A stretch of DNA of 64,000 bases, from the NCBI GenBank assembly GCA_038202745.1, contig JBBRER010000003.1, positions 676-64,675 on the forward strand, read 5' to 3'. A program made the position numbers and the translations under genes. The notes beneath the pieces were generated by a model that ran no database searches, was not told where the DNA came from, and saw only the letters and a list, made by a program, of their open reading frames with translations. This DNA is from Sphingomonadales bacterium. Lineage in GTDB: Bacteria > Pseudomonadota > Alphaproteobacteria > Sphingomonadales > Sphingomonadaceae. Below are positions 38,486 through 64,000 of this stretch, piece by piece. The first letter of the stretch is position 1. Every line of letters starts with the position of its first letter.

Positions 38486-38487
38486 GT

Positions 38488-39396: not shown

Positions 39397-39449
39397 GCAA
39401 TTCCGGTCCATAGTCATGCCCGGACGGGGCGGCAAGGAGGGGGATCAGG

Positions 39450-41900
39450 GTGGCGAATCGCGTCCGCGTTGCCATCGTCGGATCGGGGCCGGCCGGGCTC
39501 AGCGCCGCCGCGCATGCCGCGGCGCTGGGAATAAGCCACGTCCTCCTTGAAAAGACCGACCACCTCTCCGACACGATCTACAAGTACCAGAAGGGCAAGC
39601 ACGTGATGGCGACGCCATCGATGCTCGTGCTGCGAGCGGGCGGAAAGCTCGATTTCGAAGCGGGCAAGCGCGAGGTCGTGCTCGGCACTTGGGACGAGCA
39701 GACCGCGGCGCGGCAAGTCAACGTGCGCTACCACTCTGAAGTCCTGAGCATCGAGGGCGAGCAAGGCGCGTTCGCGCTCAAGCTCGGCGACGGGACCGCG
39801 GTGGAGGCCGAAACCGTGGTGCTGGCGATCGGCACGCAAGGCAATCCCAACCTCGTGCGGTGCCCGGTGGGCGAAGGCGCGGTTGTGCAATACCAGCTCG
39901 ACGACCCGGCCGAATACACCGACGAGCACATTTTCGTGATCGGCGGCGGCGACGCGGGGATTGAGAACGCGCTGGGGCTCGCGGCGGACGCGGCGCAGGG
40001 CAACGTCGTCAGCCTCGTCAACCGCTCGGCCGATTTCGCGACCGCCAAGGACGCCAACATCAAGGCCTTGATGGCCGCGCGCGACGCCGGACGGATGACG
40101 ATCCATGTCGAGACCACCTCGTCGCGGATCGACAAGGGCGAAATTGCGCTCGACACCCGCGACGGCGAAACCAAAGTGCGCTGCGACCGGGTGATCGCGC
40201 GAATGGGCTCGGCCCCGCCGCGCAAGTTCGTCGAAGCCGCCGGGGTCGCCTTCGCGAGCGAGGACCGGCTCGCCTTCCCGACGCTCGGCCCGACGTTCGA
40301 ATCGACCAAGCCCGGCATCTACGTGATCGGCGCGCTCGCCGGCTATCCGCTGATCAAGCATTGCATGAACCAGGGTCACGACGCGATCGAGTTCATCAAT
40401 GGAAATACGGCGCTCAAGCCCGCCGACGAGCCGATCCTCGAAGCCAAGTTCGCGCAGCTTCCGGGCAAGCGTTCGGTCGATGAGTGGCTCGAACTGCTGC
40501 GCAGCCAGGTCAGCATCCTCGAAGGGATGAGCCCGCTGCAGATGCGCGAATTCATGCTCGACAGCGAGGCGCGGTTCTATCGCCGCGGCGAAACGATTTT
40601 CCGCAAGAACGACCCTGGCTCTTCGCTGTTCGCCATCGCCAGCGGGAGCGTGCTGGTCCAGATCGATCCAAGCGACGCTTCGATCACCGTCGGAATCGAA
40701 ACCGGATCGATCTTCGGCGAAGTCGGGCTGATCTCGGGCCGGCGGCGCGGGGCGACGATCGTCGCCGCCGAGGACGCGATCTGCGTCGAAGTATCGCGCA
40801 CCGCCGCGCTGCGCCTGCAGTCGCAAGTTCCCGCGGCCAGGCGGGCGATCGACCGGATCGCGATCGAGCGCCAGCTGCTCCAGCTGTTCGGATCGGGGCT
40901 GACCAAGGACGATGTCGCCGAAGTCGTCGAGGCTGCGACGATCGAGTTCAAACGCGCGGGCGAAGTCGTCGTGGCCGAAGGCGACACCGGCGACGACATC
41001 TTCATCATCCGCCGCGGCTCGATGATCGTCGAAAAGCAGATCGGCGGCAAGCCGGTGTTCCTCTCGTACGTTCCGGCGAGCTCGTACTTCGGCGAAATGG
41101 CGCTGATCGACGGCACGGCGCGCACCGCGACGGTCAAGGCGACGATCAAGTCCGAAGTAATCCGCCTGCCGGGGGAGGCGTTCGCCCGCCTGCTGGCGCG
41201 CAAGCCGGCGCTGCTGCGCAAGGCGCAGACCGACATGGCCGCGCGGCGCGACATCAACGCATTCATCGAAGGCCGCAAGGAGAACTTCTCCGGCGCGGTC
41301 GACATGTATTCGGCGACCGCGCAGTTCCTGATCGACAACGGCATCGGCGACGCCACCGACGTGCTGCTGATCGACGAGACGCTGTGCGTCGGGTGCGACA
41401 ACTGCGAAAAGGCCTGCGCCGACAGCCACGAAGGGCTCAGCCGGCTCAACCGCGAAGCCGGGCGCAGCTATGCCCACCTCCACGTCCCCACGAGTTGTCG
41501 CCACTGCGAGCACCCGCACTGCATGGCCGATTGCCCGCCCAACGCGATCAAGCGCGGCCCCGACGGCGAAGTGTTCATCGACGAAACTTGCATCGGCTGC
41601 GGCAACTGCCAGCGCAATTGCCCGTACGGGGTGATCCGGATGGACAGCGTCCCGCCCAAAAAACCCCCGTTGCTCGCGTGGCTGGCGTTCGGCGCGGGAC
41701 CGGGACCGGGTGAGCCTTCGAAGAAATGGCGCAAGAAGCACTCGGATGGCACCGAGCAGGCCAAAAAGGCGATCAAGTGCGACATGTGCGCAGGGATCGA
41801 GGGCGGCCCGGCGTGCGTCCGCGCCTGTCCCACCGGCGCCGCGATCCGCGTCGCGCCCGAGGCGTTCCTGTCGGTCGCGCGGCTGGGTGAGGAAGCCTGA
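39450..41900 (+). CDS. multidomain cytoplasmic oxidoreductase: FAD/NAD(P)-binding domain + two cyclic-nucleotide-binding domains + four-cluster [4Fe-4S] ferredoxin domain
   Basis: AAGGAGGGGGA before GTG 39450. Dinucleotide motifs VAIVGSGPAGLSAA and FVIGGGDAGIE. Two CNB phosphate-binding cassettes, FGEVGLISGRRRGATIVA and FGEMALIDGTARTATVKA. Cys clusters CVGCDNCEKAC, CRHCEHPHCMADCP, CIGCGNCQRNCP and CDMC...CVRACP (DmsB/NrfC-like). No signal peptide. Confidence 0.8.
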   Translation: MANRVRVAIVGSGPAGLSAAAHAAALGISHVLLEKTDHLSDTIYKYQKGKHVMATPSMLVLRAGGKLDFEAGKREVVLGTWDEQTAARQVNVRYHSEVLSIEGEQGAFALKLGDGTAVEAETVVLAIGTQGNPNLVRCPVGEGAVVQYQLDDPAEYTDEHIFVIGGGDAGIENALGLAADAAQGNVVSLVNRSADFATAKDANIKALMAARDAGRMTIHVETTSSRIDKGEIALDTRDGETKVRCDRVIARMGSAPPRKFVEAAGVAFASEDRLAFPTLGPTFESTKPGIYVIGALAGYPLIKHCMNQGHDAIEFINGNTALKPADEPILEAKFAQLPGKRSVDEWLELLRSQVSILEGMSPLQMREFMLDSEARFYRRGETIFRKNDPGSSLFAIASGSVLVQIDPSDASITVGIETGSIFGEVGLISGRRRGATIVAAEDAICVEVSRTAALRLQSQVPAARRAIDRIAIERQLLQLFGSGLTKDDVAEVVEAATIEFKRAGEVVVAEGDTGDDIFIIRRGSMIVEKQIGGKPVFLSYVPASSYFGEMALIDGTARTATVKATIKSEVIRLPGEAFARLLARKPALLRKAQTDMAARRDINAFIEGRKENFSGAVDMYSATAQFLIDNGIGDATDVLLIDETLCVGCDNCEKACADSHEGLSRLNREAGRSYAHLHVPTSCRHCEHPHCMADCPPNAIKRGPDGEVFIDETCIGCGNCQRNCPYGVIRMDSVPPKKPPLLAWLAFGAGPGPGEPSKKWRKKHSDGTEQAKKAIKCDMCAGIEGGPACVRACPTGAAIRVAPEAFLSVARLGEEA

Positions 41901-42763
41901 TGGCGAGCGCTCCGCGCAGTGCGACGCAAGCCGAGCGCCGCGTCACCACCGATCACGAGGGATTCCTGCGCCACGGCGGTTTTGTCTGGCTCAAGGTCGC
42001 TGCGCTGCTCAGCCTCGCCGCGCTGATCGGTTACATCGCCAGCGACGTGAAGCCGCGCCCCAGCGGGCACAGTTGGTACGGCTACACGCTGGGCACGATC
42101 GGCGCCGGACTGATCGTGTGGCTGAGCCTGCTCGGGGTGCGCAAGCGCGCGATGACCCGCGGCGGTTGGTCGCTGAAGTCGTGGACCTCGGCGCACGTCT
42201 ATCTGGGGCTCTCGCTGATCGTCGTGGCCACGCTCCACACGGGCTTCCAGTTCGGGTGGAACGTCCACACCCTCGCTTACGCGCTGATGCTGCTGGTGAT
42301 CGCCTCGGGCACATTCGGGATCGTCGCTTATGCCCTGCTCCCCGCCGCGCTCAGCCGCAACCGCGGCGAGATGACCCAGGCGCAGATGATCGACGGGATC
42401 GCCGCGATCGACCGTCAGCTTCACGATGCCGCGCAGCCGCTGGAGCGCGCCTATGCCGACGCGGTGATCGACGCACTGGGGCAGGACTATTTCGCCGGCG
42501 GGCTGATCGCGCGGTTGACGGGCAGGCAGCGCAATGACGCCACCGCGCGCGCGGTGGCGCTGTTCGATGCGGCGCCGGTCGAACCCGCGATCGCCAAAGT
42601 CGAAGCGCTGCTGCGGCGGCGCAAGGCGCAGCTCGACCGGATGCGCCGGCACTTGCGCCTCAAGGCGATGCTCGAAGTGTGGCTTTATGTGCACGTGCCC
42701 GCGACGATCGCGCTGATCGCGGCGCTGGTCGCGCACATCGTCGCCGTGTTCTTCTACTGGTAG
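41900..42763 (+). CDS. five-TM membrane protein with conserved intramembrane histidines (possible b-haem binding)
   Basis: The ATG overlaps the upstream TGA by 1 nt. TMs include SAHVYLGLSLIVVATLHTGF, VHTLAYALMLLVIASG and LYVHVPATIALIAALVAHIV. I recognise no family. Confidence 0.6.
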   Translation: MASAPRSATQAERRVTTDHEGFLRHGGFVWLKVAALLSLAALIGYIASDVKPRPSGHSWYGYTLGTIGAGLIVWLSLLGVRKRAMTRGGWSLKSWTSAHVYLGLSLIVVATLHTGFQFGWNVHTLAYALMLLVIASGTFGIVAYALLPAALSRNRGEMTQAQMIDGIAAIDRQLHDAAQPLERAYADAVIDALGQDYFAGGLIARLTGRQRNDATARAVALFDAAPVEPAIAKVEALLRRRKAQLDRMRRHLRLKAMLEVWLYVHVPATIALIAALVAHIVAVFFYW

Positions 42764-42770
42764 GCGCGGC

Positions 42771-44537
42771 GTGAGCTTTCGCATCCGCACGATCGACACG
42801 CTCGCCGACGGCCGCGAGATCGTTCGCGACCGGACGATCGACAAGATGCTGCTGACGCTCGGCCGCAATGCCGAGAACGACATCCACCTGCCCGATCTCG
42901 CGGTCGATCCCGCGCACGCCACGCTGACGCGGCGCGCCGACGGGCGGATCGACGTCGCGGCGATCGAGAACCTGCGCTTCGAGGTCGATGGGCAGACTGT
43001 CACCGCCACGACGATCGACCCGGCAGTCGGGGTCGAGCTGCGCTTCGGCGGGTATCGCATCCGCGTCGGCGCGGAGGACGGCGCGCCGCTGCTGACGATC
43101 ATGCCGACCGAGACGTTCGGGCAGGCCCAGGGCGCCGATCCCAAGACCAGTTTTACGTTGAAGCGTGCGCTGCCGTCCAAGCGCGTCATGTCGTGGCTGT
43201 TTGCCGCGCTGGTGCTGGGGTTCTTCCTCGGCTGGCCGGTGGCGAGCAACTACCTCCATTCGCGCGATGCGAGGATGGCGGTCCGGGGCGACAAAAGCTG
43301 GACGCCCGGCCCTTTGAGCGCGGCGCATCACGCGCTCGAAGGCGACTGCAAGGCCTGTCACGTCAAGCCGTTCGTAGCGGTGCGCGACGCCAGCTGCCTG
43401 TCGTGCCACAAGGACGTCCACGATCACGCCCCGCCCGCCCAGATGGCGATGGCGCGCGGCATGGGCGGGCTGAGCGAGCGGCTGCTCGGCAGCGTCGCGC
43501 GACTGTTCCACAAACCCGCCGCGGGCGCCTGCGTCGATTGCCACACCGAGCACCAGGGCGCGGGCGCGATGCCGCCGACCCGGCAGAAGTTCTGCGCCGA
43601 TTGCCACGGCGATCTCAAGGGACGGGTAACCGGCGCGAAAATCGGCAACGCGGGCGATTTCGGCTCGCTCCATCCGCAGTTCACCGCGCGGGTAACGACT
43701 GATCCGTTCGCCAGGCAGACCGCGGTGGTCTCGCTCGACGCGCACCCGCAGGATCGCGACGGGCTGACGTTCCCGCACGATGTCCACCTCGCCGCGGCGG
43801 GGGGGGTCGCGCGGATGGCGATCAGCCTCGGCGCGGGGCGCGGCTACGGCGCAGCGCTGACGTGTGCGAACTGCCACCACGCGACCGAGGACGGCGTGCG
43901 CTTCAAGCCGGTGAACATGGAGCGCGATTGCCAGGCCTGCCACAGCCTCGGCTACGACCGCGTCGGCGGCACCGTGCGCACCCTGCGCCACGGCGATATC
44001 GACCAGATGATCGCCGATCTGCGCGCGTCGAACCACGCCGTCGCACCGCTCGCCGCGCCCCGGCGGCGGCCCGGGGCGTTCGGTGCCGAGGGTCCGTATT
44101 ACGCCACCTTCCGCGTCCCCGGCGCAGGGATCGATTCGGTCGCAGGCGCGCTATCTCCCGGCGGCGTCTGCGGCGAATGCCACACTGCGCGCTTCGACGG
44201 GGCCAAGCCCGGGGTCGTGCCGGTGACCCAGCCCGCGCGCTACATGGCGCACGGCTGGTTCGATCACCGCGCCCACGCGCAGGAACCATGCGCGAGCTGC
44301 CACACCGCCAAGTCCTCGCACGTCGCGACCGATCTGCTCCTGCCGGGGATCAAGACCTGCCGCGGCTGTCACCTCGGCGAAGACGCGCACGACGCAAAAG
44401 TCCCGTCGGGCTGCGCGATGTGCCACACCTATCATCCGACCCCGCTCGCCCCGCGCCCTGCTTCCGGCCGCCCGCGCGAGGTTGCGTTTGCCCGTTTTGG
44501 GTCCGGCCCCGCCCGCGCTTTCTGGGTGGGCCGCTAA
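42771..44537 (+). CDS. FHA domain - TM - decahaem c-type cytochrome fusion
   Basis: N-terminal FHA-like segment (LTLGRNAENDIHLPDLAVDPAHATLTRRADGRIDV...FEVDG), the TM MSWLFAALVLGFFLGWPV, then ten CXXCH sites: CKACH, CLSCH, CVDCH, CADCH, CANCH, CQACH, CGECH, CASCH, CRGCH, CAMCH. Confidence 0.8.
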   Translation: MSFRIRTIDTLADGREIVRDRTIDKMLLTLGRNAENDIHLPDLAVDPAHATLTRRADGRIDVAAIENLRFEVDGQTVTATTIDPAVGVELRFGGYRIRVGAEDGAPLLTIMPTETFGQAQGADPKTSFTLKRALPSKRVMSWLFAALVLGFFLGWPVASNYLHSRDARMAVRGDKSWTPGPLSAAHHALEGDCKACHVKPFVAVRDASCLSCHKDVHDHAPPAQMAMARGMGGLSERLLGSVARLFHKPAAGACVDCHTEHQGAGAMPPTRQKFCADCHGDLKGRVTGAKIGNAGDFGSLHPQFTARVTTDPFARQTAVVSLDAHPQDRDGLTFPHDVHLAAAGGVARMAISLGAGRGYGAALTCANCHHATEDGVRFKPVNMERDCQACHSLGYDRVGGTVRTLRHGDIDQMIADLRASNHAVAPLAAPRRRPGAFGAEGPYYATFRVPGAGIDSVAGALSPGGVCGECHTARFDGAKPGVVPVTQPARYMAHGWFDHRAHAQEPCASCHTAKSSHVATDLLLPGIKTCRGCHLGEDAHDAKVPSGCAMCHTYHPTPLAPRPASGRPREVAFARFGSGPARAFWVGR

Positions 44538-44538
44538 C

Positions 44539-45387
44539 ATGCTGATCGCGCAGATCACCGACATCCACATCGGCTTCGATCCGGGCAGTGCGGACGAGTT
44601 CAACATGCAGCGGCTGCGCAGCGTGATCGCGCGGTTGCTCGACGGCCCCAACCGTCCCGATCTGCTGCTGATGAGCGGCGATCTCACCGAATTCGGCGAT
44701 GCAGAGAGTTACGCGCGGCTCTCCGAAGCGGTGGCGGGGCTGCCGTTCCCGGTGCTGGCGATGACCGGCAACCACGATCTTCGCGAGCCGCTGCTCGCCG
44801 CGTTCCCAAAGACGCCGAACGAAGGCGGGTTCGTCCATTACGTCGTCGATTTCCCCGAGCTGCGGCTGGTGGTGCTCGACACGCTCGAAGAGGGGCGCCA
44901 CGGCGGCGCGTTCTGCGAGGCGCGCGCGGCGTGGCTGCGCGCGACGCTCGACGCCGCGCCGGCGCGCCCGACCGTGATCGCGATGCATCACCCGCCGTTT
45001 GAATCCGGGCTCGCCTGGCTCGACGGCAGCGCTGCCGAGCCGTGGATGCGTCGTTTTGCCGAGGCGACCTCGGGCCGCGCGCAGATCAAGGGAATCGTCG
45101 CCGGGCATCTCCACCGCACGATCCACACCGCGTGGAATGGCTTCTCAGTGACGGTGTGCAAATCGACCGCGCCGCTGGTCGCGCTCGACCTCACCCCGAT
45201 CGACGCCGACGTTCCCGATGGCCGCGCGCTGATCACCGACGAGCTCCCCGGCTACGCGCTCCACCGCTGGGACGGAACGCGGCTGATCACGCACTTCGAA
45301 AGCGTCGGAGAAATGCGCGTGCTCGCGCGCTTCGACGAAGGGCTGCTCGATACGGTGCAGATGATCGACCGCGAGCGGCCGAAGTAG
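44539..45387 (+). CDS. class III cyclic-nucleotide phosphodiesterase-like metallophosphoesterase (CpdA-like)
   Basis: ATG 1 nt after the upstream TAA. Calcineurin-fold motifs DIHIG, SGDLTE, TGNHD, AMHHPP and AGHLHR are in canonical order. Confidence 0.75.
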   Translation: MLIAQITDIHIGFDPGSADEFNMQRLRSVIARLLDGPNRPDLLLMSGDLTEFGDAESYARLSEAVAGLPFPVLAMTGNHDLREPLLAAFPKTPNEGGFVHYVVDFPELRLVVLDTLEEGRHGGAFCEARAAWLRATLDAAPARPTVIAMHHPPFESGLAWLDGSAAEPWMRRFAEATSGRAQIKGIVAGHLHRTIHTAWNGFSVTVCKSTAPLVALDLTPIDADVPDGRALITDELPGYALHRWDGTRLITHFESVGEMRVLARFDEGLLDTVQMIDRERPK

Positions 45388-45410
45388 GCTCGCGCCCAGG
45401 AACAAGTCCC

Positions 45411-45501
45411 GTCATCCTGAACTTGTTTCAGGATCCATCGCTCCCCCTGGTCCGAAGCCGCGTGGTGAGAGATGGACCCTGAAACGAGTTCAGGGTGACG
45501 A
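45411..45501. repeat. MITE/REP-like inverted repeat at the convergence point of the two operons
   Basis: CGTCATCCTGAACTTGTTTCAGGATCC (45411-45437) against the reverse complement of 45475-45501 (CGTCACCCTGAACTCGTTTCAGGGTCC) matches 24/27. Each arm contains its own CCTGAA/TTCAGG hairpin. Confidence 0.7.
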
Positions 45502-45521
45502 GGGAGGTTGCGCTGGCGTGG

Positions 45522-48500
45522 CTATTTCGCCCGCCACGCCCCCATGTCCACCTCGTCGCTGACCTTGAACGGGAAGCCCCGTTTGGTCATGAACAGCGCT
45601 TCCATCTCGGGGCGAGTGAACGGGCGCGAGCCCAGGCGGCCGAAGACTGCGATCTGGCCGCCGGTCTCGTCGACCGCGCGGTCGCGGTCGATGCCTTTGG
45701 ACAACGCCAGTGCGCGCGACGGGGTCTTGGCCCAGGCGATCAGCTCGGGCTTGGGCGCGGGGCTGTAGCCGTAGAAATTGGGCTGGCTGGCGGGCGAGGT
45801 CAGCTGGATCACCTTGAGCCCGTTGCGCCCGTCCGCCACGTAAGCGAACGCGCTGGCGTTGGTCGATCCGACGATCACGTCCTGCGCGTCGTTCATCTGC
45901 CCGCCGAACGTCTCGCGCAAATAGACCGTGGGCGCGCGCGGGCGCGTGACGTTGACGATCACCAGCCCGTCCGCGCCCGCCGCGACGTAAGCATACGTCC
46001 GTGCGAGATAGACCCGGCGCGCGTCGGCGAGCGGCACCGCGCCTTCGGGCACCGGTTGCGGATGCCTGAGATCGGTGACGTCGAACAGCTTGAGCCCGCC
46101 GCTATCGGTCACCCACAAGTAGCGGAACTGGACCGCGCTCGCGCGCGCGCCGGTAAGCGGCTGGACCGAAGCGAGCTTGGGATGGAGCGGATCGTGCAGG
46201 TCGACCGTCACCAGCCCGGCGTCGGCGGCGATGTAGGCGATCTCGCCCGCGAGCACGATGTGCCGCGCGCCATTGAGCACGCCGTTTTCGTTCCACGTCA
46301 CCGCGCGCTTGAGATGGTTGTTGGCGAAATCGCCGTCGGCGAGCGTTTCGATATTGACGAGGATCAGCCCCTCGGTCGCATCGGTTACCGCGGCGTAGCT
46401 GTAGATCGGCAGGAACGCCTGCTCCTGGTTGATCTGACGCATGATCTTGGTGTTGCGCAGCGGGTTGATCGGCTGCCCGGTCGGCAGCGCCATGCAGGTC
46501 GCATCGGTGGTGCCGACGTGGGTGTCCTGGCCCAGCGGCGAGAACGGCGCCGAGACGATCGGCTGCGATACGCCCTTGTTGGCGATTGAGGCGACATCGT
46601 AAACGCGGAAGCCGCCTTTCCCTTCGGCGACGTAAAGGTATTCGCCGCGCAATTGCAGGCATCGGGCCGCATCGCTGGTGCCGTGGGTGACGTTGCGGAA
46701 TTCCTCGGCCGGATCGGTTTCGCCCGATAGCCCCGACGACAGCGTCTTGCCGCGGACCCAGTTCTTGAGCTCGCGATGGTTCTGATCGACGTGGAGCTTG
46801 TAGTAATCGGGGTAGGCGTATTCCTGCAGGTACGACCCGATCACCGCTTGCGGTTCGCTCCATTCCGTCACGCGCACCGCCTCGATACCGCCCGCGAGGC
46901 CGGTCCACGCGTTGAGCCCGACGAAGTTGACGTAGTTCGAACCGAGCAACAGCGTCTGCGCCAGAATCGCGTTGTTGTCCTCGTCCCTGGACAAGTGGCA
47001 ATCGCTGCAGGTCTTCGTCTCCTCGGTCCGCACGGTGTGCGGGAAATGCGGCGCGAACGCCTGGCTCGAGAACCCGATCGCGCTAACCGGCGGCTGCTGG
47101 ATGTAAATCCGCTCGCGGTTGAGATTGGTCGAGGACAGCACCAGCGCGCTGGTCGATCGGACGGGGGCGACCTCCGCGCCCTTGGTGGTCATGTGCTTGC
47201 CCAGCTGGAACATGTCGTCGCGCGCGACTTGCGGGTTGTAGCTCGCGAAATTGCGCGTTTCCTCGCCCTCGTAACGATGCGAAGTGGTTCGCCAGTTGGC
47301 TTCGATCGGCAAGTGGCAGCCGCCGCAGCTCGTCGTCCAGCTGAGGTGGCAGGTGTAGCACGCGATCTTGGTGATATCGTGCGCGCGGTCGGACAGCTTG
47401 ATCCCCGGGCCGAACGCGAAACTGCCGTCCTGCGCGCCCGACTTGCTCATCAGTTTGGCCCGCGCCGCCTTGGCGTTGAAATAAGGCGAGGCCGGATCGA
47501 CGCTGTCCTTGACCAGGTGAATTTGCCATTCGAGCTTCGGATCGACGAGCGAGCGCTGCGTCAGCGTCCGCCGCCCGGCGTTGTCGAAGCCCCATTCGAA
47601 GCGTCGCTTGCCGTCGGGGTTGCGCAGCAGCGACAAGTCGTTGCCCTTGGGCGGCGCGGCCGGGCCCGAGGTCAGCAGCGTCGGGTAGGCGTCGGGAGTG
47701 CCGTGGCAATCCTTGCACCCGATCTCGATGGCGTTGGCGACCTCGCCGTAGATCAGCCCGTTGCCGTGGCTGTCCTGCGCAAAGTGGCAATCGGCGCACT
47801 GCAGGCCCTTTTCAGCGTGGATGTCCATCAGGTGGACCGCCTTGCCGGGGTTGACGCCGGGGGGCACGAACTTGCCCTCGCCCGCCTTGCGCCATTTCTC
47901 GGGGTCATCGGGGCTGACGATATGCGCGGTATCGGTCCCCCAGGTGGCCATGTTGCCGCCTTCGTCGAGCAGGTTGCCGGCGCGGTCGCGCTTGAACACC
48001 CCGCGGAAGTTCCAGCCGTGGCCGTGATAGTCGGCGAACTGGGTGTCCTTGAGCGTCGGGTTTAGATCGTAGACGTCGCGCAGGAAATCGAGATCGCCCC
48101 ACAGCCCGCGCGGGCTCGCGCCTTCGGGATTGCGATCCTCGATGTCGCGGACTTCGTGCGCGGTCGGATAGGCCTGCTGCTTGGGCCACATGCTCGGCGC
48201 GTCTGATTCGTAGTCCCACATCGTGTAGCCGAGGTAGCTGTTCAGGAAGATGTTGGGCTGGTGCATGTGGCAGTTCATGCACTGCGCGGTGGGGATCGCG
48301 CGGGTGAAGACGTGCTGGAGCGGGTGGCCCTTTTCCTTGACCGGCGGACCTTCGCGCCCGTCCACCAAAGCGCCGTGCTGCATCGCCCCGGCGATCGTCG
48401 GATCGGCGGTGATCGACTGCCCGTCGCGCCCGTATTGCGCGTAAGTCAGGCTGTCCCGCGGCTCGCGGTCGTTGGCGTAGATCACGTGGCACCCGGTGCA

Positions 48501-51406: not shown

Positions 51407-51407
51407 C

Positions 51408-54679: not shown

Positions 54680-54681
54680 CG

Positions 54682-57600: not shown

Positions 57601-60600
57601 CGCGTTGCCGACGGTGACCGTAAGCCCCGTCGTCCCACCGACGTCGGCATTGCCCGCCCCGTCGACGCCTTGCGCCTCGATATCGAGGCTGGCGAGCTTG
57701 CGCGGGGTGACTGCGCCGCTCAGCGTGTCGGTCAGCGCGAAAATTGCGGTGCCCCCGGCGCCGCGCCCGATGATCGAGCCCGCGCCGCCGAAGCCGCTCG
57801 CCTCGACCAGCGTCGGCCCCAAGTCGAATGCCCCATCCGCGACCGCTATCGCCGCGCTTCCCGCTGCCGCGTTGCCGCCTGCGCCCTGCGTCGTGGTGCC
57901 CGGACCGCCGTTGCCGCCAAATGCGTCCGCAAAGACGGATACGCCCGACGGCGCGGTCACGCGCGCGCTGCTCCCCGCGGGCATCGTCAGCGTCGCGGTG
58001 CCGCCCGTTCCGTCACCGCCGTTGCCGCCGGCGCCGAACGGATTGCTTGCGCCGTTCCCGCCGAAGCCGCCCGCGTCGATGTCGATCGCGGGCGTGTCGA
58101 GCGTGCCCGCGCTTGCGGTCAGCGATGCCATGCCGCCGAAGCCTTTGCCCGCGACCGCTGCAACCTCGCCAGCAGCGGCTACGCGAGCCGCCGAGCCGCC
58201 GAACCCGCTGGCATAGATCGCGAGATCGGTCGCGGTCGCGCTCCCCCCGCTCAGCACGAAGCGCGCCGAACCGCCCCGGCCGTCGCCCGCGGCATAGGCC
58301 GCTCCGGCACTCGACGCCGAGGTTCCCCCGGTTCCAAGCGCGCTGATCTCGAGCGCGGCGCTGTTCAACTTGCCCGCGCCCACGGTGATCGAGGCATCGC
58401 CTCCGGTGCCTTTGCCGCCGTTGCCGCGCACCGCGACTTTGCCCGCGCTCGCGCCCGCGGCATTGCCGTCGGCGCTGACCCGCGTGAACCCGCCGAGCGT
58501 CATCGTCCCGAGAACGCCGGTGACGTCGATCGAGGCGATGCCCCCGGTTGCGTTGAAGCCTTGGCCGGTTAGATCGGCGAAAACCCCGTCGCTCGCGTCG
58601 GCGGTGACCGTCGTCGTCCCCGCGATCGACACGCTGCCGTCGCTGGCGAATAGCCGCGCGGTGCCGCCGGTCGCATTCGATGCCTGCGTCCCGTTGCCGC
58701 CGAAGCCTTGGGCGCCGATCAGCGTGTCGCCGCTGCCGATCCGGCCTGCGCGGATATCGAGCACGCCGCCGTTCTGCGCGCCCGCGACCGCACTGCCGCC
58801 CGTCGCTTGCCCGGCGGTCGTGCTCGCGCCGATCCCCGTGGCGTTGGCGTTGAGCGCCAGGCCGAACGCGCGAATTGAACCGCCGTCGGCGATCAGCGAG
58901 ACGCTCCCGCCGCGCACGTCCGGGCTGGTCGTCGGCTTGGTTCCGAAGGAGGGCACGAACACGCTGGCGTTGGCATGAACGTCGATCTTTCCCGCGACGT
59001 TGAGCGCGCCGCCGCCGCTCGCGCGGATCGTCGCGGTCCCGCCCTGGGCGAAGCTTCCCGCGGGTCCATCGACCCCGCTCATCGCGTCGAGGCTGACGAT
59101 AAAATCGCCCGCCACGTCGAGCGAGCCCGGCCCCGCGACGTCGAGCGTGAACGTTCCCCCGGTCGGATCGAGCGCGCCGGAGCCGTCCATCGCGTCCCCT
59201 ATGCTTTGGAACGAGGTCCACGACTGCGCCTGCTTGGTCAGGCTGATCGCAACATTGCCGCCGAAAGCATCGCCCGAGGTCGAGCCGAAGCCGCCTCGCG
59301 CGTTCGAATAGAGAGCGACATCGCCGAGTTTCAGGAACCCGCCCAAAGTGTCGGCCGGTTGGGCTTTGTCCTGTCCGGTGTCGCCGATCGAAATCGAGCC
59401 CCCACGGGCATTGCCGCCGATCGTCCCGCTGCCGCCGTTGGCGGAGGCAACGAGTGTCGTCGAACCGGCCGACAGCGTTCCGCCGTAACCCGCCGACAAA
59501 GCGATCGTTCCGCCGATCCCGTCACCGCCCGTATCGCTGCCGAACCCGCCGTAGCCCGAGGCATCGATAAAGAGCGAACCGAAATCGAGCGTGCCGCCGT
59601 TGGCCGCGAACGAAACGCTCCCGCCGGTCCCGGCCAATCCGAATTGCCCGCTGTCCGACGACGTGCCGTAGCCGGTTGCATACGCTGTGACCGATCCTGT
59701 CACACGGATCAGCCCGGGCAGGGTGTCGATGTCCGACGGCCCCGCGACCATCGAAATCGTGCCACCGTCGGTCGAAGTCCCCGCGTAAAGATTGAGCGCG
59801 CCATTGACCACAATGTTCGAGCCGGCGCGCGCGTTGAGTGAGATTTGGTGCGCCGAAACAAGCGTGGTGTCACCGCCGAAGGTCAGATCGGCGCCCGGCT
59901 TGGGCGCAAGCGAGAGCAGGTTCTCGGCATAAATCGTCGAGCGGTTGAGGATGGCCGCGTTCGACAGTGAGAGGTTGGCGAGCGCCGGACTGGCGGTGGT
60001 GAGCGAGTATGGATTGCCCGCCTGGAGGATCACCGAGCTGCCGTCCTGCGCCGCGACCGCCGCCGGGGTGTAGCCGATCGTCCCCGACAGCAGCATCGTC
60101 AGCGCGGTGTTCTTCGGCACCGCGACGATCTTGACTTGTTGCTGATCGCCCAGGCCGGTCGAGGCCGGGCCGCCGGTGGTCCCGGTATGGACGATGCCGT
60201 TGGCGTCGTCGGTCCCCTCGGAGATCGTCATATCGATATCGACCAGCCCAGCGTTGAAGCTGATTTGCCCTGCGTTGCCCGCCGCAAGCAACGCCTGGCC
60301 GTCGACGTTGATCGTCCCGCGCTGTTCGACGCGCGGCGAGAATACCGCGACGTAGCTGGCCGCGCCGGCCTGCCCGGCGTTGATCGTCGCGCCCGGCTGG
60401 ATCACCACCGAACCACCGGCGCCGCTGAACGATGCCGATAGTTTGGTGTCGAGCGTGCCGCCATTGGCCTGCAAGTCGTTGGTCGTCAGCAGCAGGCTGC
60501 CGACGTTGAACGTCGCGGTGCCGCCGATGACGATCCCGGTCGGGCTGTAGAACCACACCCGGCCCCCCTGCACGCCGTTGATCGTGCTGTTGACCGTGCC

Positions 60601-60990
60601 GTTGAAGGCGACCCGGCGCGCTACCGGGTTACCCTGCGCGTCGACCGGGATGATCCGGTTGAGCACGGTGAAATCGGGTGCGCCGCTGGCCCCACCCATG
60701 AAATTCGCCGTGGTGCCCGCGGGCTGGAACTCGATGTCGGTGGGCCCGGCCCCCCGGTCGGTCGGGGTCCAGTTGATGATCGATTCGCGCGAGAACGGCG
60801 TAATGTCGGTCCGTCCCGAGCTGGTCGACACCGAGGCGCTGCCCGAGACGACCGTGGCGCTGCCCTGGAAAGATTGTGCGTCGAGTTCGGAGCCCACGGA
60901 CAGCGCCAGCAGCGTGGCGGAGGCACAACCCGCGAACAGCATCGCTCGGTACTGATTACGGCGCTCGGATTGGGCAAGGCGGGTGGTCAT
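54682..60990 (-). CDS. two-partner-secretion exoprotein (TpsA, filamentous-haemagglutinin-like beta-helix), 2102 aa
   Basis: ATG 60990 (ATGA overlap with the tpsB stop), a signal peptide, and a divergent TPS domain (IINW...FTVLNRI...VWFYSPTGIVIGG). About 1900 aa of Gly/Ala/Thr/Ser-rich repeats follow, ending in a Cys-containing C-terminus CNRAKDGSGGEC. Confidence 0.8.
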   Translation of the reverse strand: MTTRLAQSERRNQYRAMLFAGCASATLLALSVGSELDAQSFQGSATVVSGSASVSTSSGRTDITPFSRESIINWTPTDRGAGPTDIEFQPAGTTANFMGGASGAPDFTVLNRIIPVDAQGNPVARRVAFNGTVNSTINGVQGGRVWFYSPTGIVIGGTATFNVGSLLLTTNDLQANGGTLDTKLSASFSGAGGSVVIQPGATINAGQAGAASYVAVFSPRVEQRGTINVDGQALLAAGNAGQISFNAGLVDIDMTISEGTDDANGIVHTGTTGGPASTGLGDQQQVKIVAVPKNTALTMLLSGTIGYTPAAVAAQDGSSVILQAGNPYSLTTASPALANLSLSNAAILNRSTIYAENLLSLAPKPGADLTFGGDTTLVSAHQISLNARAGSNIVVNGALNLYAGTSTDGGTISMVAGPSDIDTLPGLIRVTGSVTAYATGYGTSSDSGQFGLAGTGGSVSFAANGGTLDFGSLFIDASGYGGFGSDTGGDGIGGTIALSAGYGGTLSAGSTTLVASANGGSGTIGGNARGGSISIGDTGQDKAQPADTLGGFLKLGDVALYSNARGGFGSTSGDAFGGNVAISLTKQAQSWTSFQSIGDAMDGSGALDPTGGTFTLDVAGPGSLDVAGDFIVSLDAMSGVDGPAGSFAQGGTATIRASGGGALNVAGKIDVHANASVFVPSFGTKPTTSPDVRGGSVSLIADGGSIRAFGLALNANATGIGASTTAGQATGGSAVAGAQNGGVLDIRAGRIGSGDTLIGAQGFGGNGTQASNATGGTARLFASDGSVSIAGTTTVTADASDGVFADLTGQGFNATGGIASIDVTGVLGTMTLGGFTRVSADGNAAGASAGKVAVRGNGGKGTGGDASITVGAGKLNSAALEISALGTGGTSASSAGAAYAAGDGRGGSARFVLSGGSATATDLAIYASGFGGSAARVAAAGEVAAVAGKGFGGMASLTASAGTLDTPAIDIDAGGFGGNGASNPFGAGGNGGDGTGGTATLTMPAGSSARVTAPSGVSVFADAFGGNGGPGTTTQGAGGNAAAGSAAIAVADGAFDLGPTLVEASGFGGAGSIIGRGAGGTAIFALTDTLSGAVTPRKLASLDIEAQGVDGAGNADVGGTTGLTVTVGNAGAGLAIAGDLSVRGDGATGAAGNGFTGSIAGAPLKVGGQFMLVTPRAAALTIAPGASLDVAGPIDFTIGRNLAGSGRLTSAGNVSIVAGTGISLTDLVSGGTTLLRAPGGAVSVSNDLRSTGLVTVLGTSVDLNSLGALSFADADATAGNLSIRTAGNLDLTTVDATGSVALASTAGAIHNTGAVHGVGIAYTAAGNVQSDAALASLGALSVTAGGTFSAPGTVSAVGNVSLDAAQGMNLAGVQSGGTTLLRATNGNVTVNALTSPGAVTLLGRGASVTSPGALTFTSAQATAGNLAVTTAGNLTTGTAGATGTVALTSTGGALTTTGAVSGAGITLSANGNVVLGGSVASNGALGVTSTNGALTTAGPLSGAGVTLSANGNVVLGGSVAASGALGVTSTGGALTTAGALSGVGITLSANGNVVLGGSVASNGALAVTSASGTVVATTPLSANGNAQIIAPGGVTLAQLASGGTTLLRAVNGAVGVANLTSVGAVTAQGRSVDLVSPGALTVTSATASAGALSVRTAGNLDIAGASATGATTLTSTGGTLHATGAVSGDSVTLVAGGAITADAPVTAINALTARAGGAFTAGSLILGRTIALTSSDIVLGATARVGLRGTTQTIVLTNGISTGRTFIGGATQAGAWSLSASEALQLFADQRITITVPVTVNPATVADFIVGQLALSYGANANIGTGGEFKLLTPGRVAVTGAVRLTTSSAADRFSIDPSRIDVVADTGSIVMRDAAGALGGTLDLVGGIIAVASQAALTDIAGQSTDAINARLAVNDVAPIAGGWLQAGQINLTATGGLFIQNSGTGAPYADRRGFSANGIAITTTSAATQIVINGMTFAGGVPHYGLDTAGTILINGRPALSTGQFDRFSTINGCIIGLDCVLAMRVGPGTSTISGSLTGQGEGSLALLLPLLQYRALEPFDSPPLIDEPVTGVGNDDLWQERCNRAKDGSGGECPDNDGG
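56281..56640. repeat. 3 x 120-bp in-frame tandem repeat inside tpsA
   Basis: Units start at 56281, 56401 and 56521, and a partial fourth starts at 56641. They are aligned by eye with roughly 85-90 percent identity. Each encodes a 40-aa unit, GALTTAG.LSG.G.TLSANGNVVLGGSVA.NGAL.VTST. Confidence 0.8.
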
Positions 60991-62759
60991 GAACCCCTCC
61001 AGGGAGTGAGGCGTGTGGTGATGGTGAACAGCGCGCGGACGTCGCCGCGCCGCGCCTGCGTGCCGGCGCGGTCGAGCGGGACCGCCAGCGTGAAATTGAA
61101 GTCGGCATGGTCGCCCCAGCGCGTGCGCACCCCGCCGCCCGCCGACCAGACGTGACGCGGATCGTCGGTCGCGCCGCCGTCGTTGGTCCATACCCACGCG
61201 GTGTCGAGGAACGCGAACGGCTGGAACCGCCATTGCTCGGGGGTTTGCGGGGTCAGACGCCCGGCGCGCAGCTCGAACCCGCTGCCCACGCCGCTGTCGC
61301 CCTGGACCACGCCCGGATCGAAGCCGCGCCCGATCGTGTAGTTGCCCAGGCTGAACTGCTCGTAGCTGAGCAGCGGGTCGGGCGAGTATTGCACGCGTGG
61401 GGTCAGCGCGAAAGTGATCGCGGGACCCGGGCGGAACTCGATCGCGGCTTCGGCGCGCGCGACGAACCCGGTTGGGTCGGCGGTGAAGTTGCTGATCGGG
61501 ATCGCCGGGAACAGGCACTTGGTCACCGGGCGGCAATTCGGGCTCGCGCCGAGCACGTCGAGTCCCTGGCGCACTTCGGCGCCGAGTGCGGCGCGCCAGC
61601 GCGGCTCGCTCGCGGTAAAGCCGCCGCGACTGCGCAGGCTGGCGGAATCGAACGCGTCGAGATCGAGCCGTGCGAACGCGACTCGCAGCTTGTCTTGGGA
61701 GAGCGGATTGGGGCCGAAGCGGATTTTCTGGTCGATCGCCTCGAGACCGACGGTCGCGCCGAGCGAGAGCGCCTGGCGGCGGATCAGCGCGTCGCGCAGA
61801 TGCCCTTCGAAAATCCACGTCTCGGTGCGAAACGCGCCGCGCGCGATATCGGGATGACCGCGTCCGTAAACGACTTGCCCGCCCAATCGCAGCCCGTTGG
61901 CGTTGAGCGCGAATTCGTGGGTCAGCTCGGCGACGGTCTGCTCGCGGGTCTGGAAAGTGTTGTAGAGGCTCAGCGTCGTGCGGTCGCCGAGCCCGGTCAG
62001 GTCGTTGAGCACGAGCTGGGCGAAGCCGCCGAACGGCCCGGTGGTCTGCGCGCCGAGGTTCTGGACGGTCGCGTAAAGCTCGACCGGACGCCGCGTGACG
62101 ACGACGTCGCCGACCACCTCGCCCGGTGCGGTCCCGGCGGGGCGGAGCACGAGGCGGACGTCGTAGCCGGGCAAATCGCGCGCCAGCAGCAGGCTGCGCT
62201 CGGCCTCGTGGGTATTGAAATATGGCCGCGTGGTCAGCTTGCGCAGATGCGCGGCGATCAAATTTTCGGACTTGCCCGGCTGTCCGCGCACCTGAATATC
62301 GACCAGCTTGGCGATCAGCACATCCATCCGCACGGTGCCGCCGGTGTCGATCCGCTGCGGCGGGATCTGGACCGCGGCGAGGTAGCCCATTTCGCGCAGC
62401 CGGGTCGCGGCGCGGTCGCGGACTTCGCACAGCGCCGAAATCGGGACTTCGTGCCCCGCGTACTCGGCCCAGGTGTCGCGCAGCGCTTCGGGCGGGACCG
62501 CGCTTTGGCTGCCGAAATCGACGCTTGCGAAGTTCGCCTTGACGTTCGCGTAAGCCGGATCGGCGAGCGGGCAAGGGCCACGTTCGATATCGCCCTCGAT
62601 GGTAAGCCGCGAGCCGCGCGTCTCGTCGCGCGGCTGCGCCACGCGCAGCTCCTCGCGCGTCGGGGGAACCGTTTGCGCGAGCGCAGGAGCCGCCCAGCCC
62701 GCGAGCGCGAGCGCGGCCAGCGAAACCGCCTGGCGTTTTTGCCCTATGCCATTGCGCAT
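60987..62759 (-). CDS. ShlB/FhaC/HecB-family two-partner-secretion outer-membrane transporter (TpsB)
   Basis: Signal peptide, a POTRA region (VPISALCEVRDRAATRLREMGYLAAVQIPPQ...GTVRMDVLIAKL), then a 16-strand-type barrel ending in an aromatic-rich C-terminus. Confidence 0.8.
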   Translation of the reverse strand: MRNGIGQKRQAVSLAALALAGWAAPALAQTVPPTREELRVAQPRDETRGSRLTIEGDIERGPCPLADPAYANVKANFASVDFGSQSAVPPEALRDTWAEYAGHEVPISALCEVRDRAATRLREMGYLAAVQIPPQRIDTGGTVRMDVLIAKLVDIQVRGQPGKSENLIAAHLRKLTTRPYFNTHEAERSLLLARDLPGYDVRLVLRPAGTAPGEVVGDVVVTRRPVELYATVQNLGAQTTGPFGGFAQLVLNDLTGLGDRTTLSLYNTFQTREQTVAELTHEFALNANGLRLGGQVVYGRGHPDIARGAFRTETWIFEGHLRDALIRRQALSLGATVGLEAIDQKIRFGPNPLSQDKLRVAFARLDLDAFDSASLRSRGGFTASEPRWRAALGAEVRQGLDVLGASPNCRPVTKCLFPAIPISNFTADPTGFVARAEAAIEFRPGPAITFALTPRVQYSPDPLLSYEQFSLGNYTIGRGFDPGVVQGDSGVGSGFELRAGRLTPQTPEQWRFQPFAFLDTAWVWTNDGGATDDPRHVWSAGGGVRTRWGDHADFNFTLAVPLDRAGTQARRGDVRALFTITTRLTPWRGS

Positions 62760-62786
62760 CGCTATCGACCCCCGCCCGCGTTCGCT

Positions 62787-63530
62787 CTAGCGCCGCGCCA
62801 GCGTCGTCGACATCAGGTCGAGCTGGGCCTTGCAGCCTTTGTCGATCAGCGCGGCGGCGAGGTTCTCGGGGCCGACGGGCATGTTCGGCAGCTGGATGAA
62901 AGTGACGTAGCTCGCCGCGCCGCTCGCGCCGGTGATGCGATACGTCGCGCCCGGGCGGATCGCGAGCTTCGCGCCGTCCCACGCCGCGACCGGGGCGTCG
63001 GCGGTGAACGCGACATTGGTGCCGGCTCCGCTTTTTTCGTCCTTGACCGTATAAGCCGCCGCTCCGGCCGAACTGCCGCGCCACAGGCTGACCGCGGATG
63101 CATCGACATAGCAATGCGGCCCCGATTGCGCGGTATCTACGTACCACAGGTTCGGGCTGGGCATCCGCCCTTCCGTTCCGGGCGCGCCGCGCACCGCCCC
63201 GGTGCGGACGCGCGAGGCCGCCATCGGTCGGGTGAACATCGCGAATGTCGCGCTCTGCGCCGCCGCCGCGCTGCCGTTGAGGGTGAAGGTTCCCCCGCCG
63301 CGCAGCACCCGCGTGCCCTTGCTGTCGAGCACGGTGACAATGTCGCCCGCGCGCAAAGTGATCCGGGCGTTGTCGTCGAGCTTGCGCCCGGCGGGATAGT
63401 CGCGCGCCGAAGGCCCGCTCGAGGCGACGACGATCGCCGCGGCGGCGAGCGTCGGGGCGGCGAGGAGGAGCGCCCCGGCGACGGCCAACGCGGCGCGGCG
63501 GACGAAATGGTCATGCGAGGATCGAGGCAT
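62787..63530 (-). CDS. secreted protein with FecR-like N-terminal beta-sandwich segment
   Basis: Signal peptide AALAVAGALLLAAPTLAAA. YPAGRKLDDNARITLRAGDIVTVLDSKGTRVLRGGGTFTL resembles the FecR-domain pattern. The family call is weak. Confidence 0.4.
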   Translation of the reverse strand: MPRSSHDHFVRRAALAVAGALLLAAPTLAAAAIVVASSGPSARDYPAGRKLDDNARITLRAGDIVTVLDSKGTRVLRGGGTFTLNGSAAAAQSATFAMFTRPMAASRVRTGAVRGAPGTEGRMPSPNLWYVDTAQSGPHCYVDASAVSLWRGSSAGAAAYTVKDEKSGAGTNVAFTADAPVAAWDGAKLAIRPGATYRITGASGAASYVTFIQLPNMPVGPENLAAALIDKGCKAQLDLMSTTLARR

Positions 63531-64000
63531 CGTTCTCTCCCAGATCGCGGATTCGCGACAACAAGTTCAGGATTGCACTATCGTGCGGAAAAGTCTTGGC
63601 GATTGTCGCCAGCGCGGTAACCCGTTTCGCGCCCGCCTGCCCCAACGCGGTGACCAGATCGTCGCGCGCCGCCTCGGGAAAATCGGGCGTCGCTTCGAAA
63701 ATGTCGACCGGCTGGGCGCGGCCGCGCAGCACCACCCGGCCCAGCGGCCGCCACCAGTCGAGCCCCGAGCGCTCGACGAACTCGCGGCTCGCCAGCACGC
63801 TCGAGCCGAGTTCCTTGTTCGCGGCCTCGAGCCGGGCGGCGGTGTTCATCGCGTCGCCAAGCGCGGTGTACTGGATGCGGCGCTCGCCGCCGAAGTTGCC
63901 GACCACCGCCTCGCCGTAATGCATCCCCACGCGAGTCTTGCCGATCGGGGGAATCCCGGGGCCGGCGCTGGCGCGGAAATCCTCGCCCGCGCGCCACATC
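63511..64000 (-). CDS. class III adenylate/guanylate cyclase, C-terminal part only (5' end outside window)
   Basis: GMHYGEAVVGNFGGERRIQYTALGDAMNTAARLEAANKELG is the canonical cyclase-homology-domain C-terminal motif. The stop at 63511-63513 overlaps the next gene by 20 nt. Confidence 0.75.
   Translation of the reverse strand, partial: MWRAGEDFRASAGPGIPPIGKTRVGMHYGEAVVGNFGGERRIQYTALGDAMNTAARLEAANKELGSSVLASREFVERSGLDWWRPLGRVVLRGRAQPVDIFEATPDFPEAARDDLVTALGQAGAKRVTALATIAKTFPHDSAILNLLSRIRDLGENDASILA

Follow-up and report, generated by a model that had tools for sequence, protein, structure and literature searches.

Does a cell that encodes a class III nucleotidyl cyclase, a class III phosphodiesterase (PDE)-family enzyme and a protein with two cyclic-nucleotide-binding (CNB) domains in a pair of converging operons use them as one circuit, and, if so, what does that circuit control? 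The question is raised by a stretch of DNA from a Sphingomonadales bacterium (Sphingomonadaceae; GenBank assembly GCA_038202745.1, contig JBBRER010000003.1, forward-strand positions 676 to 64,675), all 64,000 nucleotides of which are referred to here as the window. A sequence-only reading of the window had proposed a local second-messenger loop, with the cyclase as writer, the PDE as eraser and the CNB protein as reader, and its three domain assignments were correct in identity and in position when checked with Pfam and by motif (Table 1). On balance we favor, with modest confidence, the view that the region is a conserved Sphingomonadales trans-envelope multihaem-cytochrome electron conduit that carries its own cyclic AMP (cAMP) signalling module.

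The candidate reader and electron-input subunit, CNB816, is a composite redox protein. Pfam places Pyr_redox_2/3 over residues 6-309 and 4Fe-4S dicluster domains over residues 640-806, and the cNMP_binding family (PF00027) matches in two copies (E 6.6e-34, 116.2 bits against a cut-off of 27.5), giving in nucleotide terms a thioredoxin reductase (TrxR)-like FAD/NAD(P)H module at 39450-40409, CNB-A at about 40527-40889, CNB-B at about 40899-41252 and a four-cluster ferredoxin module at 41364-41867. Each CNB domain has a canonical phosphate-binding cassette (FGEVGLISGRRRGATIVA and FGEMALIDGTARTATVKA), with FGE…RGAT in CNB-A and FGE…RTAT in CNB-B. The protein is cytoplasmic and has no transmembrane (TM) segment, neither Pfam nor NCBIfam finds a helix-turn-helix (HTH) domain in it, and since its flavin module lacks CxxC it is not a disulfide reductase. 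Its PDB matches are to the tandem CNB domains of PKA-R and PKG, to HycB (1.5e-21) and to YpdA/TrxR-like proteins.

The alignment with PKA-R and PKG runs over both CNB domains (residues ~346-600, E ~1e-17) and keeps the Gly-Glu…Arg-[Thr/Gly]-Ala cassettes, but unlike those regulators CNB816 has neither a kinase-inhibitory sequence nor a kinase partner, and its tandem lies between two redox modules. With a PKA-R-like tandem set between a flavin module and a polyferredoxin, electron transfer from domain to domain may be under the control of a ligand, and we infer that the ligand bound would be cAMP. There is precedent for a CNB domain fused to an enzyme in the mycobacterial acetyltransferase Pat, which is thereby placed under post-translational control by cAMP, and the CNB region of CNB816 is itself hit by the NCBIfam model for Pat (5.8e-15). 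The two differ in that Pat catalyzes acetylation and has one CNB domain, whereas the activity of CNB816 would be FAD-to-FeS electron transfer, with two CNB domains in attendance.

CNB816 is 73-82% identical across the Sphingomonadaceae and belongs to a wider family, of which 701 cluster representatives were recovered at E<1e-30 from a library clustered at 50%, many of them full length and 31-49% identical. Conservation was counted over 33 aligned, divergent full-length members (31-70% identity), and in these all 16 cysteines of the FeS clusters and the glycine motifs for FAD and NAD(P)H are invariant. Within the cassette of CNB-A, G423 is kept in 33/33, E424 in 32/33 and R433 in 22/33 members, and within that of CNB-B the corresponding figures are 31/33 for G548, 21/33 for E549 and 25/33 for R558.

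The putative writer occupies the last 490 nt of the window, which hold the C-terminal half of the catalytic domain and a tail of ~100 residues; the ATG at 63999 is not its real start. Pfam Guanylate_cyc (PF00211) matches the 162-residue fragment with 23.0 bits against a cut-off of 21.9, over profile positions 102-141 only because the gene runs off the window. The fragment contains the motif QYTALGDAMNTAARLE, with the transition-state Asn and Arg present in GDAMNTAARLE, and its homologues, from Erythrobacter and Novosphingobium, are annotated as adenylate cyclases. In class III cyclases the second specificity position is Asp or Thr in enzymes that make cAMP and Cys or Ser, together with Glu, in guanylate cyclases, and the combination of Lys and Thr marks a type IIIb adenylate cyclase. 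The Thr of QYTALGD, which we take to be this second position, is present in the window and in 76/82 orthologues; the metal-Asp motif F[ST]DLEGFT and the Lys motif xDK[FY]VGDA are found in 78-80/82 orthologues, and the catalytic motifs (both metal Asp motifs, Lys, Thr and the Asn/Arg of MNTAxRLE) are invariant in 76-80/82. The specificity residues, which the sequence-only reading had singled out for inspection, thus point to an adenylate-specific enzyme with cAMP as its product, the Thr being read in the window and the Lys in the orthologues.

By orthology, the window gene is assigned to the CHASE2 receptor adenylate cyclases, with a product of ~680 residues. Metagenome contigs scanned with the cyclase as anchor have the CHASE2, TM and cyclase parts in one open reading frame (ORF) of 665-720 residues at 73/76 loci, and Pfam finds both CHASE2 and Guanylate_cyc in the cyclase genes of Novosphingobium album and N. 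mangrovi. At three loci the gene had been called as two or three genes broken by in-frame stops or frameshifts (L001 8366-10465, L085 3916-5942 and L086 8740-10699); the assemblies are error-prone, and given the single ORF elsewhere we rejected the split as an artefact. A gene for a protein of ~1000 residues with TPR and CHAT (caspase-like protease) domains stands directly upstream of the cyclase, on the same strand, in 27/40 relatives with enough sequence (for example L167 4851-7901 and L168 4942-7968), so the cyclase, previously described as the first gene of the minus operon, may not open it.

In an alignment to Rv0805 the PDE-family enzyme shows the full set of five class III PDE motifs (D-x-H, GD, GNHD, H and GHLH): its residues TDIH, SGDL, GNHD, HHPP and GHLH line up with the Rv0805 metal ligands and conform to the class III definition, D-(X)n-GD-(X)n-GNH[E/D]-(X)n-H-(X)n-GHXH (PMC4222275). 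The enzyme is cytoplasmic, lacking both signal peptide and TM segment. Among the NCBIfam models it is matched by SpdA (1e-40, 140.1 bits) and by CpdA (2.4e-22, 79.8 bits), scores that stay under the respective cut-offs of 400 and 225 bits, so that it does not reach the equivalog score of either characterised member. SpdA itself, which is encoded at the cyaD1 locus of Sinorhizobium meliloti and was expected to be a cAMP eraser, hydrolyses 2',3'-cAMP and 2',3'-cGMP but not 3',5'-cAMP, and may serve to insulate the Crp-like receptor Clr from 2',3'-cyclic nucleotides (2',3'-cNMPs) (PMC4222275). The class III assignment stands on its five motifs, but the earlier suggestion that the PDE would reset the signal is doubtful (SpdA at 140 bits, CpdA at 80), since the closest family cleaves 2',3'- but not 3',5'-cAMP.

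Given that the Metallophos superfamily has a very broad substrate range, it was reasonable to consider that the enzyme might not act on cyclic nucleotides at all, being instead, for example, a GpdQ-like glycerophosphodiesterase or some other phosphoesterase with a part in the envelope or cofactor metabolism that supports the cytochrome complex, and leaving a writer and a reader with no local eraser. The PDB matches are consistent with this, GpdQ (1e-15) being about as good as Rv0805 (2e-16), as are SpdA and CpdA scores far under the equivalog cut-offs and a reader operon, at L005, that has no PDE gene. On the other hand, all five class III motifs are present, the top family match is a cyclic-nucleotide PDE, and the gene is tied to the CNB protein in 43/44 operons and faces a CHASE2 cyclase at two loci that have no cytochrome genes, and we consider a non-cyclic substrate quite unlikely.

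The link between the three genes had been drawn from proximity, and it now has comparative support. In the window itself (GC ~0.64-0.72 in 2-kb bins), whose proteins have their closest relatives in genomes and metagenome-assembled genomes (MAGs) of Sphingomonadaceae and Erythrobacteraceae, the plus operon (39450-45387) is compact, its genes meeting at junctions of -1, +7 and +1 nt, and the minus-strand genes overlap or are separated by gaps of <=27 nt. The two operons converge on 45388-45521, and the plus string opens with the CNB816 gene and closes with the PDE gene, as the sequence-only reading had it; no further cyclase, CNB or PDE paralogue occurs elsewhere in the 64 kb. To follow the arrangement we scanned the GTDB species genomes with the conserved 662-residue protein of the minus operon as anchor, found relatives in 292 genomes and examined the best 80 loci, all of them from Sphingomonadales, among which the core of c554-like cytochrome, HbpS-like lipoprotein, 662-residue protein and LVIVD cytochrome genes is always syntenic. 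Sequence extends at least 2 kb past the LVIVD gene at 55 loci, of which 44 have the convergent operon of CNB816, cytochrome b and decahaem cytochrome, and in 43 of these 44 the PDE gene comes last, L005 being the exception. Three loci anchored on CNB816 itself, one of them from the completely sequenced Sphingomonas paeninsulae, repeat this arrangement, together with a divergent gene for a CcmH-like TPR protein; this gene is also the divergent neighbor of CNB816 in the window and at L003, L004, L005 and L169.

A second scan, anchored on the cyclase, yielded 84 loci with an orthologous cyclase, which we call type A, 67 of them informative. At 57/67 the cyclase stands in front of either the cytochrome genes or a module, itself placed ahead of them, of genes for a TpsB-type transporter and a giant secreted protein: 30 run straight into the c554 cluster and 4 do so after a gap, and 23 continue with the TpsB-giant pair, of which 5 reach the c554 gene and 18 end, in the sequence fetched, before it. 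The cyclase faces a PDE orthologue directly at two more loci (L002 9917-12119 and L157 1525-5378), where it is paired with the gene for the periplasmic protein p247, the PDE orthologue is 50-55% identical and convergent, and cytochrome genes are absent. It looks as if the cytochrome genes had been inserted into, or deleted from, a cyclase/PDE pair, and the PDE is thus tied both to the CNB subunit and, without cytochromes, to the cyclase. Far from being unlinked in relatives, then, the two operons mostly travel together, although the 10-kb flanks at type-A loci mostly end inside the LVIVD gene and the direct join of cyclase to reader is resolved in N. album only. In N. album B2580 the complete set is contiguous on one contig (overlapping loci L167 and L052), in the order CHAT-TPR, CHASE2 cyclase, p249, TpsB, giant, c554, HbpS, 662-residue protein and LVIVD, followed by the convergent PDE, decahaem, cytochrome b and CNB816 genes.

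It might be argued that this co-location is incidental, the genes being functionally unconnected and brought together by hitch-hiking or the structure of an island, since the evidence is one of linkage and the modules lie apart in some relatives. However, the linkage is kept in Novosphingobium, Sphingobium, Sphingomonas, Croceibacterium, Tsuneonella and Erythrobacter-like MAGs at ~50-75% protein identity, and the position next to the c554 gene is filled more than once: in 17 loci that lack the giant gene it is held, in co-directional or divergent orientation, by one of two further CHASE2-TM-cyclase types that are not orthologous to type A (33-40% identical, also with Lys and Thr/Ser), and in 9 of the 17 the PDE and CNB816 genes are also within 22 kb. 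That three CHASE2 cyclase types have been recruited to this one position is more readily explained by function than by inheritance alone, and we regard chance association as very improbable. The two further types, seen among L006-L067, differ in build, one being a protein of ~747-855 residues with a TPR-like tail (for example L010 4368-6611, plus strand) and the other one of ~618 residues that is divergently transcribed (for example L015 4597-6453, minus strand).

The nearest described system is the cyaD1 locus of S. meliloti, which comprises cyaD1 for a CHASE2 receptor adenylate cyclase, clr for a Crp-like regulator, smc02177 for a protein with a FecR domain, smc02178 for a periplasmic protein and spdA (PMC4222275, PMC5498481). 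The two loci, both alphaproteobacterial, have side by side a receptor class III cyclase, a cytoplasmic class III PDE-family enzyme, a CNB reader and small periplasmic proteins, and the window PDE scores highest with the SpdA model, yet at 140 against 400 bits it is no SpdA equivalog. They part company at the reader, which in S. meliloti is the transcription factor Clr and in the window is a tandem CNB within a flavin/FeS redox subunit with no HTH; p247 lacks the FecR domain of SMc02177 (PMC5498481); and the window module, unlike that of S. meliloti, is embedded in multihaem cytochrome operons.

With this analogue in mind, the window cyclase might instead serve a transcriptional circuit, in which cAMP acts through a Crp/Clr-type regulator encoded elsewhere, CNB816 follows the global cAMP level or is of minor importance, and the PDE is a SpdA-like scavenger of 2',3'-cNMPs. 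The best-studied analogue, CyaD1/Clr, works in this way, with SpdA specific for 2',3'-cNMPs (PMC4222275, PMC5498481), and the top score of the window PDE is with the SpdA model. A possible regulator is also seen at L025 (Novosphingobium sp. BL-8A), where no reader operon is nearby and a 243-residue Crp-family HTH protein (16088-16819, minus strand) is encoded convergently with the LVIVD gene; the canonical cNMP phosphate-binding cassette was not found in it. The diffusible nature of cAMP fits such a circuit as well. Set against these points, the 64-kb window contains no Crp-like gene, the PDE shares an operon with CNB816 in 43/44 clusters, and a tandem CNB with intact cassettes, built into a redox subunit that is 73-82% identical across the Sphingomonadaceae, is hard to explain without a ligand-dependent role. 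We therefore regard a purely transcriptional circuit as possible but on the unlikely side.

The identity of the domains, the integrity of the catalytic and ligand-binding motifs, the packing of the operons and the conservation of their linkage are observed. Building on these, the cAMP-equipped conduit might work as follows; we infer the allosteric gating, the substrate of the PDE and the direction of electron flow from the sequences. The CHASE2 receptor adenylate cyclase would make cAMP in response to a periplasmic or surface cue, working on the sensing side with p247 and, in this genome, probably also with the TpsB-secreted giant protein. The cAMP would bind the PKA-R-like tandem of CNB816, between its flavin/NAD(P)H and four-cluster ferredoxin modules, and binding would act as an allosteric switch on electron transfer between NAD(P)(H) and the remainder of the route, which is predicted to pass by way of cytochrome b in the membrane, the decahaem cytochrome anchored in the inner membrane, the c554-like cytochrome, a putative outer-membrane barrel and the LVIVD cytochrome. 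The PDE would keep the reader's ligand pool in check, either by hydrolysing cAMP (reset) or, as SpdA may do, by removing 2',3'-cNMPs from the CNB sites (insulation).

A number of observations weigh against this reading. On the side of linkage, 8/67 cyclase loci have unrelated neighbors, 11/55 clusters have no reader operon within reach, and in N. mangrovi the cyclase module is at least 34 kb from the cytochrome cluster; on that contig (HK4-1, JANZXA010000015.1; L168, L056) the CHAT-cyclase-p250-TpsB-giant string runs off the contig start and the genes from c554 to CNB816 lie at 48.6-70.4 kb, a separation on one contig which shows the modules to be separable. On the side of the reader, the cassette Arg and Glu are not found throughout the wider CNB816 family, one of them being absent from between about a quarter and a third of the divergent members. 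For the writer, the Lys and the metal Asp of the window's own cyclase lie beyond the window and are known from orthologues only (~60-65% identity), and because cAMP is diffusible the cyclase need not act locally. The PDE's role as eraser is uncertain, in that SpdA, the curated family closest to it, leaves 3',5'-cAMP uncleaved, the glycerophosphodiesterase GpdQ is matched about equally to Rv0805, and the specificity of class III PDEs cannot be read from sequence (PMC4222275). Finally, the module's components are known here as sequences, and the electron path as a whole, like the outer-membrane beta-barrel that we suppose the 662-residue protein to form, is deduced from gene content.

Table 1. 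Features of the window relevant to the cytochrome cluster and its putative signalling module (window coordinates; proteins in amino acids).
Feature	Position	Strand	Length	Basis or remarks
TonB-dependent receptor ORF	36476-39091			Plug domain at residues 246-354
CcmH/CycH-type TPR protein, cytochrome c biogenesis accessory	38488..39435	-		Pfam TPR_CcmH_CycH, E 2.2e-15
CNB816, putative reader/input subunit	39450..41900	+	816	Pfam, NCBIfam and PDB matches
Membrane b-type cytochrome-like subunit (Ni_hydr_CYTB/b561 family)	41900..42763	+		Pfam PF01292, 30.4 bits against cut-off 30.1
Decahaem cytochrome c, inner-membrane-anchored	42771..44537	+	588	Pfam Cytochrome_C7/c3; 10 CXXCH
Class III PDE-family metallophosphoesterase	44539..45387	+	282	Pfam Metallophos, E 2.7e-15; last gene of plus operon
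Imperfect long palindrome	45411..45499			Within convergent spacer 45388-45521; fold energy -89.3 kcal/mol, z = -8.5
Large multihaem cytochrome c with LVIVD beta-propeller repeats	45522..49514	-		Pfam LVIVD, 2.5e-15, and Cytochrome_C7/c3; 10 CXXCH
Conserved protein, putative outer-membrane barrel	49511..51499	-	~620-660	Signal peptide; C-terminal aromatic residue; start uncertain
HbpS/GlcG-like repeat lipoprotein	51408..53336	-	642	Pfam HbpS-like, E 2.9e-22, 3 stretches; lipobox …LVAC
Periplasmic cytochrome c554-like multihaem protein	53336..54679	-		Pfam Cytochrome_C554, E 6.4e-9; 4 CXXCH and 1 CX4CH
Secreted giant protein	54682..60990	-	2102	ATG at 60990 overlaps TpsB stop; signal peptide
TpsB-type two-partner-secretion outer-membrane transporter	60987..62759	-	590	Pfam ShlB (PF03865), 3.1e-18; POTRA_2 (PF08479), 2.1e-5
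p247, periplasmic protein	62787..63530	-		Signal peptide; detected beside cyclase in 80/84 cyclase loci
CHASE2 receptor adenylate cyclase (by orthology), class IIIb-like, 3' end	63511..64000	-	last 162 codons	Pfam PF00211

On the sensing side, the sequence-only reading had named FecR and TpsA as possible partners of the cyclase. The ORF taken for FecR, of 125 residues at 63137-63514, is a wrong-frame artefact: it is out of frame with p247, an exact-sequence look-up of it gave no match, and its Arg/Pro/Ser-rich translation led us to reject it as a gene and therefore as FecR. The real gene at this place, p247, has no FecR match in Pfam at E<=1 and no Pfam match overall; its confident AlphaFold2 model (predicted local distance difference test score 84) suggests two beta-sandwich domains followed by C-terminal helices, and in a Foldseek search of the PDB nothing fell below E 0.01, the best hit, at 0.017, being a generic immunoglobulin-like fold.

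The 2821-residue ORF at 54682-63147 was likewise rejected as one gene. Comparison with the N. album genes revealed that it combines the TpsB and giant genes, which are in different frames, its upper 1.8 kb being TpsB in the other frame; like that at 63137-63514, it is a long spurious ORF of the kind typical of high-GC DNA. The TpsB product is 54% identical to that of a ShlB-family gene of N. album, and the giant is 36-41% identical to a 2486-residue protein of the same species. As in the two-partner secretion (TPS) systems FhaC/FhaB and HxuB/HxuA, a ShlB/FhaC-family transporter with POTRA_2 is encoded immediately upstream of, and overlapping, a giant gene, but here the giant has no Pfam Haemagg_act domain and the pair has a cyclase module on one side and cytochrome genes on the other. 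No haem motif occurs in the giant and no Pfam family, the TPS domain included, matches it at E<=0.1; a 2702-residue version of the ORF likewise gave nothing in Pfam. Its residues 122-244 have a weak phmmer match to the TPS region of HxuA (E 1.4e-3) and residues 1435-1559 match the designed beta-propeller Tako8 (E 3.4e-9), with no other recognizable domain. The giant is thus the probable cargo of the adjacent TpsB, and the earlier TpsA assignment is partly right: a TpsB is borne out by the ShlB and POTRA_2 domains of the transporter, and the giant itself may be a TpsA, the weak HxuA match being its one trace of a TPS domain. The pair is absent from about half of the related clusters.

Turning to the candidate electron route, the b561/Ni_hydr_CYTB-like protein has at least 4 hydrophobic helices by hydropathy and is syntenic in at least 40 loci. 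The decahaem cytochrome has a cytoplasmic FHA-like N-terminus (residues 1-135), a TM helix (139-157) and 10 CXXCH motifs in its periplasmic part. Its N-terminus (window 42771-43175) bears the FHA signature GR…D.HL.D…HA, at 18.7 bits just below the Pfam FHA cut-off, and the Ser that usually binds phosphothreonine appears replaced by Asp; the anchoring of a multihaem cytochrome via an FHA domain is unusual. The gene for the HbpS/GlcG-like lipoprotein, whose three repeats are of a haem-binding or haem-degrading kind, keeps its place between those for the c554-like cytochrome and the putative barrel; the barrel candidate has no Pfam match and is 69-74% identical to its homologues in L001 and L004. 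The ORF of the LVIVD cytochrome, presumably located at the cell surface, reaches 49682, but its likely start is the ATG at 49514, and its homologues have 1322-1370 residues.

In general terms this parts list of a polyferredoxin, a cytochrome b, periplasmic and surface multihaem cytochromes and a putative outer-membrane protein recalls the HycB/HybA-type, Hmc/Tmc and Mtr/Pcc conduits. The haem-motif counts of the three cytochromes are 10, 10 and 4-5, matches to HycB, HmcB, DsrO, NrfC, the MtrC/MtrF domain and DmsE-family decahaem proteins are all below family cut-offs, and no component reaches the equivalog cut-off of any named redox or conduit system, Mtr/Pcc included. Unlike those systems, the window has as its input a TrxR-like flavoprotein with CNB domains, and it adds an HbpS-like lipoprotein, LVIVD repeats and a putative barrel outside any Pfam family.

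The spacer in which the operons meet contains an imperfect palindrome that the repeat search had not picked up and that folding together with a pattern search revealed. Its arms (45411-45432 and 45478-45499) are ~22-30 nt long, and its core motif, CCTGAAACNAGTTCAGG, recurs as an inverted pair in L035 (20052-20175) and as a single copy in L164, which gives it the look of a dispersed element resembling repetitive extragenic palindromes (REP). It is probably such a REP-like element or a bidirectional terminator hairpin, and as the former may double as the latter; a scan of the spacer for terminator and promoter consensus sequences found nothing, including no T-tract terminator, and an Rfam scan of 36000-64000 gave zero matches. 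At the other end of the plus operon the true start of the CcmH-like TPR gene is probably the ATG near 39396, and the TonB-dependent receptor ORF, which abuts this gene, has its real start well downstream of the ORF start, as judged from the position of its Plug domain.

Local cAMP modules and CNB-fused enzymes are already known. In the literature we found no description of this cluster, of a CNB-gated flavin/FeS electron-input subunit or of a second-messenger-gated electron-transfer enzyme of such a kind; one match to LVIVD and multihaem terms, a Tenderiales preprint, proved unrelated to the cluster. Control of respiration by cAMP is usually pictured as transcriptional, via Crp-type regulators, and here a cyclic-nucleotide sensor is part of the electron-input subunit itself, with a receptor cyclase and a PDE-family enzyme kept adjacent in dozens of genomes. 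Tentatively, and as a proposal that may well prove wrong, we suggest that cAMP could gate electron transfer, respiratory or extracellular, directly and at the post-translational level, with CNB816 coupling or uncoupling NAD(P)(H) from the cytochrome wire and the cluster's own CHASE2 cyclase sensing the periplasm or surface, possibly via the giant and p247.

Aerobic soil and water heterotrophs of this kind are not, to our knowledge, known for extracellular electron transfer, and, if the proposal were true, these common organisms would be able to switch a multihaem cytochrome conduit fast and locally. What CHASE2 senses could then be asked in a tractable system, in strains already in culture (Novosphingobium album B2580 and Sphingomonas paeninsulae among them), and the cluster would be a second case in which to test if class III PDEs of the SpdA-like kind serve as cAMP erasers or as insulators of CNB receptors from 2',3'-cNMPs.

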